A stretch of 64,000 nt of DNA from an uncultured Bacilli bacterium (GTDB lineage Bacteria > Bacillota_I > Bacilli_A > RF39 > UBA660). The notes under the pieces are model-generated. The model was given only the letters and a program-made list of their open reading frames with translations, did not search any database and was not told the DNA's origin. This document shows positions 1,731 through 50,155 of this stretch, piece by piece; position 1 is the first letter of the stretch; each line of letters begins with the position of its first letter. Location: NCBI GenBank assembly GCA_934122275.1, contig CAKOWI010000002.1:64762-128761 (forward strand). The letters are read 5' to 3'. The position numbers and the translations under genes are program-made.

Positions 1731-2085
1731 AAAGACAAAAGTGTTAATGGTTATAGTATTAATTTTACTTTTTATAGTGCTAATTTATTTTTTTAATTAT
1801 AAATGTGATTTTAATGGAACTTGGGTTAGAAATTTAAATACAGATGGAGAGACAATATATTTTGGAAAACTAGGTCATTTTTCTTATTATACTTCTGAAG
1901 GTAATGCGGTTGGCGACTATGACTTATGTTCTTTTTATACTTATAATAAAAGAAGAAATTATATCAGATTATGGTGCGATAGCTCATTTGATGGAATAAA
2001 AAAATTAAAGATTTTGGATAAAAACTCTAAAAGGTTAAAAATTAGTTTTGATGGTGATATAAGGGTATTTGAAAAAGATGGATAG
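1720..2085 (+). CDS. Hypothetical membrane-anchored protein
   Basis: 121 aa; N-terminal hydrophobic helix 'VLMVIVLILLFIVLIYFF'; overlaps the previous stop by 11 nt (translational coupling). Confidence 0.5.
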   Translation: MKNKKTKVLMVIVLILLFIVLIYFFNYKCDFNGTWVRNLNTDGETIYFGKLGHFSYYTSEGNAVGDYDLCSFYTYNKRRNYIRLWCDSSFDGIKKLKILDKNSKRLKISFDGDIRVFEKDG

Positions 2086-13186: not shown

Positions 13187-13263
13187 GTCCTCGTAGCTCA
13201 GCTGGATAGAGCACTCGCCTCCTAAGCGAGGGGTCATGCGTTCAAATCGCATCGGGGACGCCA
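13187..13263 (+). tRNA. tRNA-Arg (anticodon CCT)
   Basis: Hand-folded cloverleaf: acceptor gtcctcg/cggggac, anticodon stem ctcgc/gcgag with loop ctCCTaa, T-arm atgcg-ttcaaat-cgcat, 3' CCA. Confidence 0.88.
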
Positions 13264-16112: not shown

Positions 16113-16123
16113 ATGAATGGTTG

Positions 16124-16152
16124 TTGACAATATGAACATATACTCATATAAT
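16124..16152 (+). promoter_or_regulatory. SigA-type promoter (TTGACA-17-TATAAT) with embedded inverted repeat atatga-N8-tcatat (putative ArsR/CadC operator)
   Basis: Perfect -35/-10 hexamers 17 nt apart. The inverted repeat spans the spacer, as is typical of ArsR/SmtB operators. Confidence 0.5.
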
Positions 16153-16182
16153 ATATTTGTAAATAGTAGAAAGAAGGTAATT

Positions 16183-16476
16183 ATGAAGTTATTAGATGAT
16201 GATGAGATAATAGACTTATCAGAATTATTTAAAATGTTTGGTGATTCTACAAGAGTTAAAATAATGAATGTACTTATTAATGGAGAATTGTGTGTAAGTG
16301 ATATTTCAGAAAAAATAGGTGTTAGTCAATCAGCTGTCTCACATCAACTTAGGATACTTAAGGATTCAAAGCTAGTTAAGTATAGAAAAGATGGTAATTT
16401 AACATACTATTTTTTAGCAGATGATCATGTTGAGAAAATATTTAAGATGGGATGTGAACACATAAATGAAATATAA
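16183..16476 (+). CDS. ArsR/SmtB-family metalloregulator (CadC-like)
   Basis: 'ELCVSDISEKIGVSQSAVSHQLRILKD' winged HTH with a Cys in the alpha3 position. The ATG at 16183 has RBS 'aagaaggt'; the track's 16117 start lies inside the promoter. Confidence 0.8.
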   Translation: MKLLDDDEIIDLSELFKMFGDSTRVKIMNVLINGELCVSDISEKIGVSQSAVSHQLRILKDSKLVKYRKDGNLTYYFLADDHVEKIFKMGCEHINEI

Positions 16477-18502
16477 ATTTAAGTTAAATGAACTTGACTG
16501 TGCAGGTTGTGCTTTAGAAATAGAAAAGAAGTTAAATGAAAATGATGAGATAAAGGAAGCTAGTGTTAACTTTTCTAAATTAATGATAACGGTTATAACT
16601 GATAATAAAGATGCAAAAAAGTTAGTTTCTAGTATTGTTAAAAAAGTAGAACCTGATAGTAAAGTTTTAGATTTAAACGAAAATATAGAAAATAAAAATA
16701 AGTTTAAATTTCATATAATAAGACTTATATCGGGTGTACTATTTGCACTACTTGGTATGTTCTTGTTTAAAGGTATTATATCTAAAGTATTTATAATATT
16801 AAGTTATGTAATACTTTTATATAGAACTTTTACAAGTGCTTTAAAGTTATTATTTAAATCAAAGACAATAAATGAGAATATGTTAGTTACAATATCTTGT
16901 ATTGGAGCCTATTTAACTGGTAATTCTCATGAAGGTTTAATGGTTATAGTTCTTTATGAGATAGGTAAAATATTAGAGGAAATAGCAGTTAATAACTCAA
17001 GACGTTCAATTAGTAATTTGATGGATATAAAGCCAGCTTATGCTAATTTAAAGGTAGATGAGGAAATATATGAAGTAGAGCCTGAAAAAGTTTCTATAGG
17101 AGATATAATAGTTATTAAAAGTGGTGAAAAAATACCTTTAGATGGTGTTATCATAGAAGGAAAGGCACGTCTTAATACTTCTGCTTTAACTGGTGAATCT
17201 AAGCTAAGGGATGTAACTATTAATGATGAGGTTTTATCAGGATGTATAAATGAGTCAGGGCTTATACTTATAAAGGTTTCTAGTGAATATGAAGATAGTA
17301 CAGTTTCTAAAATTCTTGAATTAACTGAAAATGCAAGTGATAGAAAGGCAAAAACTGAAACCTTTGTATCAAAAGCTGCTAAAATATATACACCAATAAT
17401 AATGGTACTTGCATTTTTAATAGCAGTATTACTTCCTATTTTTGGAGTAAGTTTTAAAGTATCAATATATAGAGCACTTGTATTTTTAGTAGTATCATGT
17501 CCTTGTGCCATTGCAATAAGTGTACCACTTGGATATTTTTCCGGAATAGGAAAGGCTTCTAAATGTGGAATTCTTGTAAAGGGAAGTGATTATCTAGAAC
17601 ACTTAAGTATGGTAAATAAAATAGTTTTTGATAAAACTGGTACTATAACAACTGGTAAGGCATCAAGCTATAAACTTGAAATACTAGATAAAAACTATAA
17701 AGAAAAGGATATAATAAATTACTATATAAAGGGTGAGGCTTTATCAAATCATCCGCTTGCAAAATCTATTGTTAGTATATTTAATAAGAAAGTAAGTACA
17801 AATGATGTTACTAATTATAAAGAGCATTCAGGTAAAGGAATATCTTATGAACTTGACGGCAAGAAAATAAAGATAGGGTCATCTTCTTTTGTAAAAGCTA
17901 AAGATAAATCATCTTCTGTTTATTTATCCATTAATGATAAAATTATATCAAAATTAGAATTAATGGACGGTGTTAAAAAAGATTCTAAAGATGCAATTAG
18001 TATGCTAAAGAATGAAAATATTATTACATATATGTTTACAGGTGATGATAAGGAAGTTGCTCTTGATATAGCAAATAAAGTCGGAGTAGATGAAGCAAAA
18101 TATGAGATGCTTCCAGAAGATAAGTATGAAGAACTTGAAAAGATAATAAAATCAAATGATAAAAAAACTGCTTTCGTTGGTGATGGTATAAATGATGCTC
18201 CATCTTTAGCACTTGCTGATATAGGTATTTCAATGGGAATGAATGGATCATCTTCAGCAATTGAAGCATCTGATGTTGTAATTATGAATGATTCACTAAC
18301 TAAAATACCAGAAGCAATTAAAATATCGAGATTTACAAAAAAAATAATAGTTCAAAACCTAGTATTTGCTCTAGGAGTAAAATTAATAGTACTTATACTA
18401 AGTGCTTTTGGAATTGCTAATATGTGGCAAGCTGTATTTGCGGATACAGGTGTTACTTTACTTACTATTTTAAATACTACAAGGATACTAAAAAGAAAAT
18501 AA
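16466..18502 (+). CDS. Heavy-metal (Cd/Zn/Co-type) P1B-type ATPase
   Basis: N-terminal HMA 'DCAGCALE', TM6 'CPC', 'DKTGTIT', 'GDGINDAP'. Overlaps the regulator stop by 11 nt. Confidence 0.9.
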   Translation: MKYKFKLNELDCAGCALEIEKKLNENDEIKEASVNFSKLMITVITDNKDAKKLVSSIVKKVEPDSKVLDLNENIENKNKFKFHIIRLISGVLFALLGMFLFKGIISKVFIILSYVILLYRTFTSALKLLFKSKTINENMLVTISCIGAYLTGNSHEGLMVIVLYEIGKILEEIAVNNSRRSISNLMDIKPAYANLKVDEEIYEVEPEKVSIGDIIVIKSGEKIPLDGVIIEGKARLNTSALTGESKLRDVTINDEVLSGCINESGLILIKVSSEYEDSTVSKILELTENASDRKAKTETFVSKAAKIYTPIIMVLAFLIAVLLPIFGVSFKVSIYRALVFLVVSCPCAIAISVPLGYFSGIGKASKCGILVKGSDYLEHLSMVNKIVFDKTGTITTGKASSYKLEILDKNYKEKDIINYYIKGEALSNHPLAKSIVSIFNKKVSTNDVTNYKEHSGKGISYELDGKKIKIGSSSFVKAKDKSSSVYLSINDKIISKLELMDGVKKDSKDAISMLKNENIITYMFTGDDKEVALDIANKVGVDEAKYEMLPEDKYEELEKIIKSNDKKTAFVGDGINDAPSLALADIGISMGMNGSSSAIEASDVVIMNDSLTKIPEAIKISRFTKKIIVQNLVFALGVKLIVLILSAFGIANMWQAVFADTGVTLLTILNTTRILKRK

Positions 18503-18560
18503 TTTCAAAAATACATTCTATTGTGTTACAAGATGTAATATGATAAAATGTATTTGTTAA

Positions 18561-18634
18561 GCCTCCTTAGTTAAGTGGTATAACGCAGCCATGGTAAGGC
18601 TGAATTGTAGGTCCGATTCCTACAGGAGGCACCA
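18561..18634 (+). tRNA. tRNA-Thr (anticodon GGT)
   Basis: Acceptor gcctcct/aggaggc, anticodon stem cagcc/ggctg with loop atGGTaa, T-arm gtagg-tccgatt-cctac, CCA end. Confidence 0.88.
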
Positions 18635-18659
18635 GATTAATTGATAACTCAAACTTTTT
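18625..18659 (+). repeat. attL-like copy: tRNA-Thr 3' end plus flank 'ggcaccagattaattgataactcaaactttt'
   Basis: Imperfect direct repeat with 20064-20094 'gggcaccagattgatagttactcgaactttt'. Confidence 0.45.
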
Positions 18660-18816
18660 AAGATAAGTATAAAAACTACTTTCAAATTTAATTGGAAGTA
18701 GTTTTATTTTGATAATTTAGAAACACACTTGCATATTGACATATCGATTAGCGTGTGGAATTCATTTAGTAATTCAATTTTAAATAAGTTGTGTTATAAT
18801 AATAAACTAAAAGGAG

Positions 18817-19749
18817 ATGATAGTTATCAAAACAGAAGAATTAAATAGATATATTAATGCACTACTAAATAAATCAGAGGAAGCATATTTAATGTCAATT
18901 GAGATAATAAATAAACCTACTATTAATTATAGAACTGAAGGATTTTGTTTTTTTATCTGTAATGCTTGGGAATTATTATTAAAAGCATATCTTATTAATA
19001 AAGCAAAAGATATCAATGTAATAAATTATAAAGATGGTACTAATAGAACAATTGGACTAGATGAATGTGTAGAGAAAGTTTTTACAAGTACAACAGATAA
19101 AACAAAGAACAATATTTCTTTTGTTAGAAATATTAGAAATAAAGCAACACATCTAATATTACCAGAATATGATTTTATATTATCTTCTGCTTTTCAAAGA
19201 TGTTTAACAAACTATAATAAATTTTTCAAAAAACAATTTCCAGAATATAATTTAAATGAAAAAGTAACACCATATATTGCGTTAGTTAATCCTGGAGATG
19301 ATAAAGATGTTTCATCTTTAATATTAAATCCTAGTAATTTGCTAATGCTTAAAAAAATAAAAAAAGAATTAGATTCAGATGAAAATTTAACTCAAACATT
19401 AAGATTAGTATCTACTAAAAAAGAATCAGAAGCGGATATTAAATACACAGTTGTTAAAGATGGTGGAGAAAAAGCTACAGTAATTAATGTTCCAAAAGAT
19501 ATTGATAAAACTCATCCTTATACTGCTACAGAAGTAATTAAAAAGATAAAAGAAACATTGGAGCTATCTCTAGGTCCAAATCATAAATTTACATCAAATA
19601 AATTTCAAGATATATGCAAAAGAAAGGGAATAAAGAATAATCAAGATTATTGTTATCAGTTTCCTTATTCTAAAACCAAAATTTATAAATATAGTGATAT
19701 AACAATTGAATATATTAGTCAAGTTTACATCGAAGAATTCAAGAAATAA
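18817..19749 (+). CDS. Orphan protein with Rx4H (HEPN-like) motif, possible Abi-type
   Basis: 310 aa. 'ISFVRNIRNKATHL' carries R-N-x3-H. The N-terminal 'IEIINKPTINYRTEGFCFFICNAWELLLKAYLI' resembles an uncharacterised DUF family (DUF3644-like, by memory and unverified). Confidence 0.55.
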   Translation: MIVIKTEELNRYINALLNKSEEAYLMSIEIINKPTINYRTEGFCFFICNAWELLLKAYLINKAKDINVINYKDGTNRTIGLDECVEKVFTSTTDKTKNNISFVRNIRNKATHLILPEYDFILSSAFQRCLTNYNKFFKKQFPEYNLNEKVTPYIALVNPGDDKDVSSLILNPSNLLMLKKIKKELDSDENLTQTLRLVSTKKESEADIKYTVVKDGGEKATVINVPKDIDKTHPYTATEVIKKIKETLELSLGPNHKFTSNKFQDICKRKGIKNNQDYCYQFPYSKTKIYKYSDITIEYISQVYIEEFKK

Positions 19750-20063
19750 AAAAATTGTGAATAATTAATAATTATGTGTTATAATATATATGTAGATGGG
19801 ATACTTGTGAAGGAATAACGATGTGTTGGCAATGCCAGTAAGCATACTTTGTATGTGAGCATTCATCTCGCCTGGGGTACCCATCATTTTTTATGAAATT
19901 TTTTGTAGAAATTGTGTACAATATTACACTAACAAATTGACTAGATACTAATTAAAAAACTAAAAATATATATATAAATGAATTTAATGTTATAATATAG
20001 TTGATTAATAGTTATTACTAACTATGTCTTTTGCCATAGAAGTTATTCTACTTCTTTCCTTAG

Positions 20064-20094
20064 GGCACCAGATTGATAGTTACTCGAACTTTTC
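20064..20094 (+). repeat. attR-like copy of the tRNA-Thr 3' end
   Basis: See 18625-18659. Confidence 0.45.
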
Positions 20095-20275
20095 GAATTT
20101 ATATACTAAAATGCACTATAACTGTGCAAAAATTGTCTAAAAAACGCAAAAATGCACAATATTTTTGATATATTGTGCATTTTTATTTGTTTTTTTAAAT
20201 ATTATATTATTTTAAAGGTAAAAGGTGCATTTATGCAGTATTGTATATTAGAAGGATATTTATGAAAGGAATTTT

Positions 20276-22531
20276 ATGTTAGAACTTATTGGTATAAAAA
20301 AGGTTTATAAAAATAAGAATTATGTACAAACTGCATTAAATAATGTTAATCTTAAGTTTAGAAAAAAAGAATTTGTATCAATACTTGGTGAATCGGGTAG
20401 TGGTAAAACAACACTATTAAATATAATAGGTGGTCTTGATAAATATACAGATGGTGACTTTATAATAAATGGTATAAGCACTAAAGACTATGATGAAAAG
20501 TCGTGGGATATATATAGAAACAAAAACGTTGGATTTATATTCCAAAATTATAATTTGATAAACAATCAATCTATACTGTTTAACGTTGAGCTGGCATTAT
20601 CACTTAATGCATTGTCAAAGAAAAAAAGAAGAAAATTAGCGATTAATGCTTTAAGAAAAGTTGGATTAGTTAAATATATGAATAAAAAGCCTAATGAATT
20701 ATCAGGTGGGCAGATGCAAAGAGTTGCAATTGCAAGAAGTATCGTTAATAATCCTGATATAATTTTAGCAGATGAACCTACCGGTGCTTTAGATTTGAAA
20801 AATAGTTATGAAGTTATGAACATACTAAAAGAAATATCAAAAGAAAAGTTAGTTATAGTAGTTACTCATAATTCAAAACTAGCTTTAAAATATTCAACTA
20901 GAACGTTAAAAATAAGGGACGGGAAAATAATTTATGATTCTAATAAGTATCTTAATTCAAATAGCTGTCCTAAAATGAGTAATATAAAAAGGCGAAAACT
21001 TCCAATTTTTATGGCAATAAAACTATCTTTTAATAATTTATTAGCCAAAAAAGGTAGAACAATACTAACTACGTTAGCTAATTCTATTGGAATAATAGGA
21101 ATTACGGTAATTTTATCATTTTGTAATGGAATAGATAAATATATTAATAACCTAGAAGAAAAAATGGTTAACATATATCCAATTGTTATACAAAGAAAAA
21201 GCGTTATTAATCAAAATAAAATTAGTGAAAAAAAGAAATATAACAAAAATAAAATATATGCAGTTAAGGATGATAGTATCAAAATTCAAGATACAAAAAA
21301 GTTTAAAAAATACTTAAATGAAAAAAGTAAAGATATAGAAAAATATTCAAGTAATTTGAACTATGGATATGATATATCCATGAATCTTTATAAAAATAAT
21401 GGTAATATTTTATCTAAAGTGTCAGTGCCAGATGAAAATTTATTTTTTATACTTTCTGAAGATAATGCTAAATCTTTTAAGATAATAGATGGAACATTTC
21501 CAAAAAATTATAATGATATAGTTTTAATTATTGATGAAAATAATGAGATATCAAAAGAAACACTTCGTAACTTAGGCATAATAGATACTAATACAAATGA
21601 TGAAAAAACAATATATAAACCTAGTGATTTTATCGGATTAACATATAAATTAGCTTTGAATGTAGATTATTATAAAAAAGAAAATAATGTATGGATTAAT
21701 ATGATTGAAAATGAGTCGTATCTAGATGGTATAAGTAATAAATTAGATGAATTAAAAATAGTTGGTGTTGTTAAGAAAAAGAATGGTGATGATCTTAATA
21801 ATTATGGAAAAATAGGATACAGTCCTTTATTGGTTAATCACATGATTAATAAGATAAATAATTCTTTAATAGTAAATGAGCAGATAAATAATAAAAATAT
21901 AAATGTATTTACTAACATGGAGTTTACTAATTCTAGATATTTAGATAATTTAAATATACTTAATGTAGTTAATGAAGATATTCCTGATGTTATTTATATT
22001 TATCCTAAGGACTTTAACTCTAAAAAAGAAATCATTAATTTAATAGATAATTATAATTTAAATGAAGAAAAAATTGATTATATTGATAGTATAGGTTCTT
22101 TACTAAATAGTATTTCTTTATTTACTAATATAATAAGTAAAGTACTAATTATGTTTGTTTTTGTAAGCTTGGTTGTATCTTCAATAATGATGTCTGTAAT
22201 AACGTATATATCGGTGATAGAAAGAACAAGAGAAATTGGTATTTTAAGGTCTCTTGGTATGAGTAAAGGTGATATATCAAAAATCTTTAACGTTGAAACT
22301 ATTTTAGAGGGATTATTTTCTGGAATTTTTGGAGTATCATTTGCTAGTATAATTAATCTGTTATTAAATCTAATTATTAAAAATGAGTTTAAAGTATCGC
22401 TAGTTGTTTCTGCTAAAATATCTAATATCTTATCATTAATTATGTTAAGTATTTTTCTTGCTTTACTTTCAGGATATATCCCATCTAAAATGGCTGGTAA
22501 AAAAGAAATAGTATTATCTCTTAAATCTTAA
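20276..22531 (+). CDS. Fused ABC transporter (ATP-binding domain + FtsX/MacB-type permease)
   Basis: Walker A 'GESGSGKTT', signature 'LSGGQMQR', Walker B 'ILADEPT'; C-terminal four-TM FtsX-like domain; 751 aa. Confidence 0.85.
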   Translation: MLELIGIKKVYKNKNYVQTALNNVNLKFRKKEFVSILGESGSGKTTLLNIIGGLDKYTDGDFIINGISTKDYDEKSWDIYRNKNVGFIFQNYNLINNQSILFNVELALSLNALSKKKRRKLAINALRKVGLVKYMNKKPNELSGGQMQRVAIARSIVNNPDIILADEPTGALDLKNSYEVMNILKEISKEKLVIVVTHNSKLALKYSTRTLKIRDGKIIYDSNKYLNSNSCPKMSNIKRRKLPIFMAIKLSFNNLLAKKGRTILTTLANSIGIIGITVILSFCNGIDKYINNLEEKMVNIYPIVIQRKSVINQNKISEKKKYNKNKIYAVKDDSIKIQDTKKFKKYLNEKSKDIEKYSSNLNYGYDISMNLYKNNGNILSKVSVPDENLFFILSEDNAKSFKIIDGTFPKNYNDIVLIIDENNEISKETLRNLGIIDTNTNDEKTIYKPSDFIGLTYKLALNVDYYKKENNVWINMIENESYLDGISNKLDELKIVGVVKKKNGDDLNNYGKIGYSPLLVNHMINKINNSLIVNEQINNKNINVFTNMEFTNSRYLDNLNILNVVNEDIPDVIYIYPKDFNSKKEIINLIDNYNLNEEKIDYIDSIGSLLNSISLFTNIISKVLIMFVFVSLVVSSIMMSVITYISVIERTREIGILRSLGMSKGDISKIFNVETILEGLFSGIFGVSFASIINLLLNLIIKNEFKVSLVVSAKISNILSLIMLSIFLALLSGYIPSKMAGKKEIVLSLKS

Positions 22532-49874: not shown

Positions 49875-49934
49875 TAATTGATATATAATAAATACTGTGT
49901 TATAATTTAGTTGTTTTAAAGGCAATGAAGGAAA

Positions 49935-50155
49935 GAAAAAGGTAAAACTACTAATAAGAGAGCGTACAAATGGTGAAAGTACGTAGTAGATAATAACTAT
50001 ATAAATGGTTCTGGAGCTTTTTAATTGAATAATTAGATTAAAACGGTGGTAACGTTATAACTTTAAAGAGTATACTGTTATTAGTATAAATTAAGGTGGT
50101 ACCGTGGACATATAAGTTCATCCTTTATATAGGATGGGCTTTTTATTTTGAAAGG
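49935..50155 (+). promoter_or_regulatory. T-box riboswitch leader (Met specifier) upstream of metG
   Basis: 'agagag' AG-box region, specifier-loop candidate 'caaATGgtgaaa' closed by cgtac/gtacg, T-box 'aattaaggtggtaccgtgg' (AAnnnGGGTGGnACCGCG-like), terminator catcc-tttatata-ggatg plus T-run. Confidence 0.7.

Follow-up and report, generated by a model that had tools for sequence, protein, structure and literature searches.

A remnant mobile element at a tRNA-Thr gene of a gut Bacilli bacterium carries a HEPN-family gene and a conserved structured RNA

The DNA studied here is a 64-kb stretch (hereafter the window; contig CAKOWI010000002.1 of assembly GCA_934122275.1) of an uncultured Bacilli bacterium of the human gut, and is very AT-rich (about 25% GC). 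On its forward strand, a gene for a threonine transfer RNA, tRNA-Thr(GGT), is found at 18561-18634 (ARAGORN; Rfam tRNA model, 64.6 bits). The 1.4 kb that follow, up to an imperfect repeat of the tRNA 3' end, contain two genes on the same strand. The first is an open reading frame (ORF) at 18817-19749, which encodes a 310-residue protein assigned to the HEPN class, and the second specifies a structured RNA of about 95 nucleotides (nt), at 19795-19891. Each is preceded by one copy of a directly repeated 12-mer, TGTGTTATAATA, which reads as an extended -10 promoter element (18790-18801 for the ORF, and 19775-19786, as seen in the sequence, for the RNA). An earlier interpretation of this DNA (the sequence-only reading) had described a relic islet, devoid of integrase, integrated at tRNA-Thr and reduced to a single orphan gene. 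As developed below, the relic and its mode of integration are borne out by comparison with related loci, and the description of its content has to be revised.

The islet is delimited by a repeat of the end of the tRNA gene. An 11-mer, GGCACCAGATT, starts at 18628 and again at 20064 and nowhere else in the window, its left copy being made up of the final 7 nt of tRNA-Thr plus 4 nt. Past the 11-mer, an imperfect repeat continues down to ...ACTTTT. The sequence-only reading had placed the two copies at 18625-18659 and 20064-20094. The formal alignment that it had called for, once run, gives 18628-18658 and 20064-20093 with a score of 35; the repeat therefore stands, with coordinates that were off by at most 3 nt. 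Gapped local alignment of 2.3-kb stretches taken elsewhere in the window yields 24.2 +/- 2.7 (maximum 31; none of 114 reaches 35), and 5 of 500 shuffles reach the score. Hence, the repeat by itself is modestly significant, and thus weak, evidence, and the comparative data are decisive.

In a sister strain (L012), the flanking ABC protein is 97% identical to that of the window and the DNA upstream of it is wholly different. Homology starts exactly at the right repeat (GCACCAGATT / GCACCAGATTGATAGTTACTCGAAC), and L013, a second contig of the same strain, begins at exactly that base. Positions 1-3320 of L012 hold a different island at the same junction, encoding a 516-residue protein without Pfam match, a SUKH/SMI1 immunity-like protein and a 72-residue zinc-ribbon protein, and this island ends with its own degenerate tRNA-like hairpin ahead of GCACCAGATT. 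In another species, an empty site (L042: tRNA-Arg(CCT)...GGGACA, then CCAGATTGATA, then ATAACTCGAATTTTTT) can be compared with the left junction (L052: GGGACA, then CCAGATTGATA, then GGAAACTCGAACTTTT) and the right junction (L069, on the same contig as L052: ...cttagGGCA, then CCAGATTGATA, then ATAACTCGAATTTTTT) of an occupied one. This comparison yields the attachment sites attB, attL and attR, with the core CA-CCAGATTGATA. The right end of the window element (...ttctttccttagGGCA, then CCAGATT) is homologous to that of L069. With the junction logic taken from L042, L052 and L069, attL corresponds to 18628-18658 of the window (forward strand), where the core GGCACCAGATT is followed by the element-derived flank AATTGATAACTCAAACTTTT. 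In attR (20064-20093, forward strand), where the homology to L012 and contig L013 start, the core is followed by the host-side flank GATAGTTACTCGAACTTTT. The architecture is that of site-specific integration at a tRNA 3' end. The sequence-only reading had spoken of integration into the tRNA gene, which is right as to the 3' end; the site, however, lies at the CCA end and in the trailer, outside the tRNA body.

Related loci also indicate what the element was before its decay. Positions 18707-19936 of the window are 98% identical to a locus (L056) downstream of tRNA-Thr(CGT), where the ORF and the RNA stand behind a 640-residue protein with Resolvase, Recombinase and Zn_ribbon_recom domains and a Mob_Pre (MobV) relaxase. 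L056 also shows tandem accretion. Other related loci follow tRNA genes of several specificities, Thr(GGT), Thr(CGT), Leu(GAG), Leu(CAA), Met, Gly and Arg. The islet derives from a family of integrative and mobilizable elements (IMEs) of AT-rich human-gut Bacilli, characterized in its full-length members by a large serine recombinase and a MobV relaxase. Neither protein is encoded between 18635 and 20071 of the window and both are present in L056, so that the islet is comparable to a cis-mobilizable element (CIME), that is, a remnant and not an autonomous IME. The relic proposed by the sequence-only reading is in this way matched to relatives, 98% identical, that keep the recombinase and the relaxase.

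Between attL and attR, the islet holds more than the one gene initially ascribed to it. Besides the RNA, there is an intrinsic terminator at 18672-18705 (forward strand; terminator scan), borne by the element and now ending the tRNA transcript. It is 83-88% identical to the terminator behind tRNA-Thr in L022 and L036, and unlike the host terminator at 20148-20184. There is also a right end of 170 nt (19892-20063, forward strand), recognized by homology to IME right ends (85-92% identity to those of L056, L031, L041 and L069), the tail of which is a degenerate tRNA-like 3' end (...ttccttagg). IMEs of this family target the CCA end of tRNA genes, and their crossover within a short core (CCAGATT...) leaves this core duplicated, as it is here. 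The islet is a deletion derivative, with attL, the terminator, the cargo, the right end and attR retained and the recombinase and the relaxase lost. We are confident that 18635-20071 is such a 1.4-kb, integrase-less, CIME-like remnant of the IME family. In streptococci, IMEs and CIMEs are flanked by att sites at the 3' end of tRNA genes, full elements having a recombinase and a relaxase and deleted ones retaining att sites and cargo. The window element, att-flanked at a tRNA gene and deleted down to its cargo, is similar to the latter. It differs in that the hosts of its family are uncultured gut Bacilli, the recombinase is of the large serine type, the core lies at or after the CCA and a small RNA is carried.

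It could be argued that the repeat arose by chance or by local duplication and that the 1.4 kb were inherited vertically. Indeed, the repeat is short and imperfect, its score is reached by the few shuffles mentioned above, and the base composition of the islet is the same as that of its flanks, neither GC content nor skew showing a contrast. However, the strain polymorphism breaks exactly at the repeat, and the same ends and core are found at other tRNA genes, with a demonstrable empty site. Moreover, the cargo has a much wider distribution than the host genes: relatives of the flanking ABC gene are found at 100% and 97% identity, then drop to 46%, whereas the cargo protein is represented by more than 120 clusters at 79-99% identity. 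The few close relatives of the ABC gene, set against these clusters, show that the mobility of the cargo far exceeds that of its host. A fortuitous repeat is thus extremely improbable. A scan of a genome collection with the flanking ABC protein gave no match above 40%, and hence no close relative. The same locus is present in a contig (L010) from a Hadza gut metagenome; its flanks are 100% identical to those of the window (over 317 and 526 nt) and its ORF (L010 4542-5474) differs by 5 nt and three residues.

The sequence-only reading had correctly delimited the ORF and had drawn attention to VRNIRNKATH, of the form R-N-x3-H, as a motif of HEPN ribonucleases (RNases). This motif occupies residues 103-112 (R107-N-K-A-T-H112), and its R107, N108 and H112, which constitute the HEPN motif proper, show at least 90% conservation across 39 diverse homologs and no variation among 65. 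In Pfam, residues 16-161 match DUF3644 (PF12358; E = 4.7e-42, 144.1 bits for a cut-off of 27.6), a family classed as HEPN (Anantharaman et al., 2013; PMC3710099). Residues 228-302 match the EC042_2821-like REase-like domain (PF18740; E = 2.8e-12, 47.5 bits for a cut-off of 24.9), which forms the C-terminal domain. A full-length match is obtained with the PADLOC candidate system PDC-S19 (PDLC04952, E = 1.1e-67, residues 12-302 on positions 4-308 of the 328 of the hidden Markov model, HMM), and phrog_9605 is matched in PHROGs. The AlphaFold2 model has a mean predicted local distance difference test score (pLDDT) of 75.9, the N- and C-terminal domains being mostly well predicted. Over residues 1-140, block-mean values lie mostly between 78 and 97, with two lower blocks (70 and 59). 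The top 13 Foldseek matches in the Protein Data Bank (PDB) are all HEPN domains (3o10, 8xdj and 7bxo among them; probability up to 0.99, TM score 0.4-0.57), and the HEPN matches include the sacsin HEPN domain and the HepT/SO_3166 toxins. Because the Pfam assignment, the conserved motif, the HEPN-only fold matches and the existence of active relatives agree, the view that the protein is a HEPN-family member, with an intact motif and a predicted HEPN-like fold, is supported.

Contrary to what was first thought, the gene is no orphan. Its family, the same as PDC-S19, is frequent in prophages and satellites and falls into about 1000 clusters when grouped at 50% identity. In prophages (C. butyricum, Listeria LP-HM00113468), homologs are cargo genes located at the lysis end or the attachment end; they are also cargo of Streptococcus phage satellites, and in phages of Staphylococcus and Corynebacterium they adjoin the integrase gene. 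The public collection has no record of a protein identical to that of the window, a sequence search of the PDB found no relatives, and a literature search returned no papers mentioning PDC-S19.

The second gene had escaped the sequence-only reading. The segment behind the 12-mer at 19775-19786 is fairly GC-rich and has a U-run at its end, and a 143-nt stretch corresponding to the RNA is 84-89% identical among relatives, vs. 80-83% for the ORF. A 23-nt motif taken from it matched 72 metagenome loci. Thirty-one distinct variants fit a same three-way junction, in which 98.6% of the base-pair cells are paired. In the alignment of these variants, compensatory changes are seen at seven pairs, vs. 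2.1 +/- 1.1 in shuffled alignments (0 of 500); in a broad alignment, they are seen at 21 of 29 pairs. The RNA also has long invariant unpaired stretches. The window copy scores 122 bits with covariance model R1 and is the only one that the covariance model detects in the window; its P1 stem and the U-run together form a terminator. More generally, of 16 copies of the RNA, 14 are preceded by a -10-like element (a hexamer at the equivalent place) and 14 are followed by a U-run. Taken as a single sequence, the RNA has an insignificant fold energy (z = -0.69), so that the structure is derived from comparative data only. From these alignments, we consider that the RNA and its covariation-supported structure are real and that the locus is organized like a transcription unit.

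Other identities for this segment were considered. A coding region was ruled out, as the stems covary and the variable hairpin has indels of lengths not divisible by three. With Rfam 15, no family reached threshold for any copy of the RNA. DUF3800-VII was the only recurrent weak match, full-length, with 19.1 bits for the window copy and 15.0 bits for that of L100, for a gathering score of 36.2; this identity was rejected, since the scores are well under threshold and four other copies give no match. The abiF motif had no Rfam match at the RNA at E up to 10, and no tandem repeats were found in 18400-20400. Thus, the RNA of about 95 nt is conserved and apparently undescribed. In Flavonifractor phage Chenonceau (L115), a 30-residue "hypothetical protein" is annotated at 1998-2090, overlapping a covariance-model match to the RNA (1959-2052, minus strand); this coding sequence is probably a mis-annotation of the RNA locus.

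The RNA is constantly linked to the DUF3644 gene. In all 13 contexts retrieved via the protein, it lies within -37 to +62 nt of the gene, so that what had been taken for a single cargo gene has a conserved structured RNA as its constant companion. With its speed filters off, the covariance model found the RNA on the opposite strand beside homologs that are 28-35% identical to the window protein (tblastn; about 35% by MAFFT). Six contexts were obtained first, among which the Streptococcus satellite Javan125, a C. butyricum prophage, Sarcina, Lachnospiraceae and Oscillospiraceae. A broadened model then gave five more, in Listeria, Flavonifractor, Staphylococcus and Corynebacterium phages and in a second satellite, with 48-76 bits. 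Gene and RNA are co-directional in three of the 13 contexts and convergent in ten, and in nine of these ten the U-run of the RNA overlaps the last codons of the gene. The linked contexts are IMEs, prophages, phage satellites and chromosomes, from Listeria, Staphylococcus, Streptococcus, Clostridium, Flavonifractor and Corynebacterium. In L014 (MutS...RNase H), L105 (PrfA...HisKA) and L108 (...DnaG), the gene and the RNA form a bare insert among housekeeping genes, with no element around. A scan of viral sequences with the window-type RNA motif gave no matches. Neither DUF3800 nor any other recurrent partner was found in a Pfam scan of 15 neighbouring proteins, and an RNA partner is mentioned nowhere in the searched papers on DUF3644, EC042_2821 or PDC-S19. 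A functional pairing of the protein with the RNA is likely.

The reverse linkage is much looser. The gene was never seen without the RNA in the contexts examined, and the RNA often outlasts the gene. Indeed, the gene is present in only about 22 of the 72 metagenome RNA loci (about 50 lack it) and in 45 of 80 viral RNA contigs. Among the 35 viral loci without the gene, 34 were searched again with the covariance model, and 29 still hold the full RNA. Traces of the gene persist at many of these loci. In L044, L055 and L062, the final 25 nt or so of the ORF are kept, abutting the RNA. In L185, a C-terminal DUF3644 tail of 30 residues remains (83% identity, E = 6e-10), and L198, L176, L155 and L120 likewise keep such tails, in the right frame and place. 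Nothing comparable was found in upstream control segments of the viral loci. In L036 (4417-4675), the ORF has been excised precisely between the two promoter 12-mers TGTGTTATAATA; the joining of its flanks at this repeat suggests that the gene can be gained or lost via recombination between the two promoters. Finally, the contig carrying L052 and L069 (ERZ857629 NODE-2491) has two copies of the RNA, an intact one inside the IME and an outer one, just outside attR, that has lost 3 nt from a conserved stretch; in L042, the relative with the empty site, only the outer copy is present, and there it is intact.

RNA-only copies also occur between housekeeping genes, in the arrangement TopA-RNA-GpmI found in about 35 contigs of one species. 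In L039 (6816-8778), an AAA_21 ATPase and RloB-like pair is inserted upstream of the RNA at the TopA/GpmI site, 59 nt away, and other contigs of this species have or lack a Fic-domain gene just downstream of the RNA. In this species, the RNA marks a variable cargo slot. Cargo beside RNA-only copies comprises AAA_21 + RloB (from Pfam) and proteins that look SIR2-, MazF- and RhuM-like by eye. Such settings raise the question of whether the RNA is a host housekeeping RNA, for instance a divergent RNA resembling that of the signal recognition particle, beside which the DUF3644 gene merely inserts. Its high conservation, its strong promoter and a loose synteny with TopA in three lineages would fit. 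However, the RNA is carried by phages, satellites and IMEs, it is present twice on one contig, it is 99% identical across genomes in which TopA is 68% identical, and no housekeeping family of Rfam is matched. Moreover, the covariance model did not find it in the 3.5 kb upstream of the ABC gene of L012. A housekeeping RNA is therefore very improbable, and we rejected it on its carriage by phages and IMEs, its two copies on one contig and the contrast in identity with TopA.

Several known systems can be compared with the pair. In type III toxin-antitoxin systems (ToxIN, CptIN, TenpIN), which are mobile and act in abortive infection, an endoribonuclease toxin is encoded next to an RNA antitoxin, the latter consisting of short repeats arrayed in tandem, which the ToxN-fold toxin processes. 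The resemblance is that an RNA gene adjoins a predicted endoribonuclease gene in 13 of 13 contexts; here, however, the RNA is a single-copy three-way junction, the protein belongs to the HEPN class, and neither a ToxN domain nor a repeat array is present. A closer parallel is provided by AbiF(Cd)-RCd22 of a C. difficile prophage, in which a HEPN-type toxin of the Abi_2/AbiD/F group is neutralised by a structured non-coding RNA (PLoS Genet 2025, PMC12373285). RCd22 acts by direct binding of AbiF, in cis and in trans (PMC12373285). In both cases, as judged here from sequence, a HEPN-type protein borne by a mobile element is accompanied by an adjacent conserved structured RNA. The differences are that the present protein is of the DUF3644/EC042_2821 type and has no Abi_2 match in Pfam, that the RNA has no abiF motif, and that it lies downstream of the gene or convergent to it and not in its 5' region.

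At the protein level, PDC-S19/EC042_2821 shares family and architecture with the window protein, as seen from the full-length HMM matches; it is catalogued as a single-gene system, with no RNA component. HEC-08 is a DUF3644 protein in which the histidine of the Rx4-6H motif is required for defence (bioRxiv 10.1101/2024.01.29.577857). Ishtar, a DUF3644 HEPN protein with a C-terminal alpha/beta domain found on satellites and integrons, removes a conjugative plasmid (10.64898/2026.07.06.735840). Both resemble the window protein in their N-terminal DUF3644 HEPN domain. HEC-08 differs by its zinc-finger C-terminal domains, and Ishtar was compared by description only. At the RNA level, DUF3800-I to -XI, drum and skipping-rope are highly conserved, terminator-ended small RNAs, each tied to one nuclease-like family, whose gene they may flank on either side and in either orientation (Weinberg et al., 2017; PMC5737381). 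The likeness of the present RNA to them is one of style (terminator-ended, tied to one protein, on either strand); it is a member of none of these families and its partner is DUF3644.

On balance, we lean towards the view that the islet is an IME remnant carrying a HEPN toxin or defence nuclease held in check by an RNA partner. HEPN defence proteins are generally toxic or abortive-infection RNases (PMC3710099), and we infer RNase activity, toxicity and a defence function for the present protein. The DUF3644 protein would be such a toxic or abortive-infection RNase, and the RNA would bind it and keep it inactive, as RCd22 does with AbiF. The nuclease would be set free upon infection or when the element is lost. 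If the RNA acts as an antitoxin, rescue would depend on its segments GUGAAGGAUUAA and CCUGGGGU and on P1 pairing. Loci with the RNA alone are common and none with the gene alone was seen, which fits a toxin-antitoxin pair, and it is from this asymmetry that an inhibitory role is deduced: loss of the toxin would be harmless and that of the antitoxin would not, and orphan antitoxins could protect against related incoming elements. An antitoxin-like role, for which AbiF-RCd22 provides the analogy, is accordingly proposed as plausible, a little short of probable. More tentatively, the DUF3644/EC042_2821 nucleases of Bacillota and of some Actinomycetota may be obligate protein-RNA modules, in which an antitoxin-like RNA can survive as an orphan "anti-addiction" gene. 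Such survival would explain the spread of the RNA through phages, satellites, IMEs and the chromosomes of gut bacteria.

The RNA might, on the contrary, activate the HEPN nuclease, or target it, as a required cofactor, scaffold, sensor or guide. Both the strict linkage, seen in all 13 contexts, and the long stretches of unpaired nucleotides without variation would suit any specific RNA-protein complex, and the DUF3800-I, drum and skipping-rope RNAs, terminator-ended and each tied to one protein domain on either strand, are described as having possibly complex roles (Weinberg et al., PMC5737381). However, a cofactor is useless alone, and yet the RNA persists, intact and with its promoter, after deletion of the gene, both in the TopA/GpmI contigs and at the loci that keep the 3' tail of the gene. 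A cofactor role is thus unlikely.

A number of points weigh against a nuclease controlled by its RNA. All the evidence is computational. On the protein side, residues 155-226 of the AlphaFold2 model are of low confidence and the Foldseek E-values are weak (0.06 or higher). HEC-08 and Ishtar were reported as active with no mention of an RNA (bioRxiv 10.1101/2024.01.29.577857; 10.64898/2026.07.06.735840), and PADLOC lists PDC-S19 as a single-gene candidate. A covariance-model search beside DUF3644 genes 21-23% identical to that of the window, on four actinobacterial or alphaproteobacterial plasmids, found no RNA. As for the integration, no true empty tRNA-Thr site, which would read tRNA-Thr(GGT) then directly GATTGATAGTTACTCGAAC, was found in the window's own species, only the alternative occupant of L012. 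Finally, RNA-only copies adjoin integrases, repressors and other, defence-like cargo, which could mean that the RNA is a feature of the element backbone and not a dedicated partner. It would then be unrelated to the HEPN protein, for example as a regulator near the attachment and integrase end or as a bidirectional terminator or insulator of the cargo slot, and the protein would be a single-gene abortive-infection system, in line with its filing in PADLOC. Indeed, P1 and the U-run do terminate the convergent gene. However, a terminator needs neither some 60 invariant nucleotides nor a three-way junction nor its own promoter. In addition, L014, L105 and L108 have bare two-part inserts among housekeeping genes, and every gene retrieved via the protein has its RNA. 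We therefore regard a backbone role as improbable.

The islet itself is ordinary: it is a decayed tRNA-linked mobile element with defence cargo, for which the junctions, the intact parent element and an empty site are documented. What is added is the RNA, which current annotation misses in a protein family that many temperate phages and satellites carry in Listeria, Staphylococcus, Streptococcus and Clostridia. A defence gene entered in catalogues as solo thus probably functions together with an RNA. Should this RNA control the nuclease, this would be the second independent case, after AbiF-RCd22, of HEPN toxins governed by structured RNAs. Such control would account for failures or toxicity when these genes are cloned alone, and Rfam and the defence-finder tools would gain a new RNA family. 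Besides, the asymmetry between protein-absent and RNA-present loci offers a simple genomic test for RNA antitoxins.

A few further features were noted around the islet. Outside it, a bidirectional terminator (20148-20184; terminator scan) is shared by the window with L012 and L013 and is likely the original terminator downstream of the tRNA. Within the right end, positions 19985-20063 show a further TATAAT-like box (gttataat), then two hairpins and the tail resembling the acceptor end of tRNA-Thr (TTCCTTAGGGCACCA vs. TTCCTACAGGAGGCACCA; fold z-score -1.96). This stretch possibly provides recombinase-binding arms. The sequence GATTGATAnnnACTCGAAnTTTT follows the CCA of differing tRNAs (Thr-GGT, Thr-CGT, Arg-CCT and Gly-TCC) across differing genomes, as seen by comparing this flank in the window (20072-20093), L042, L056, L052, L055, L074 and L095. 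It is either a conserved attB for the recombinase family or a series of left-end scars of older elements. Five kilobases upstream of the islet, the window has a tRNA-Arg(CCT) gene (13187-13263), the target of the same element family in another species. Between tRNA-Arg and tRNA-Thr (16117-18502 included) are found patatin-like, HD-domain and ArsR/P-type-ATPase (metal resistance-like) genes, which may be accessory too. Farther downstream, a T-box leader is detected at 49916-50128 with 102 bits, over the Rfam gathering score.

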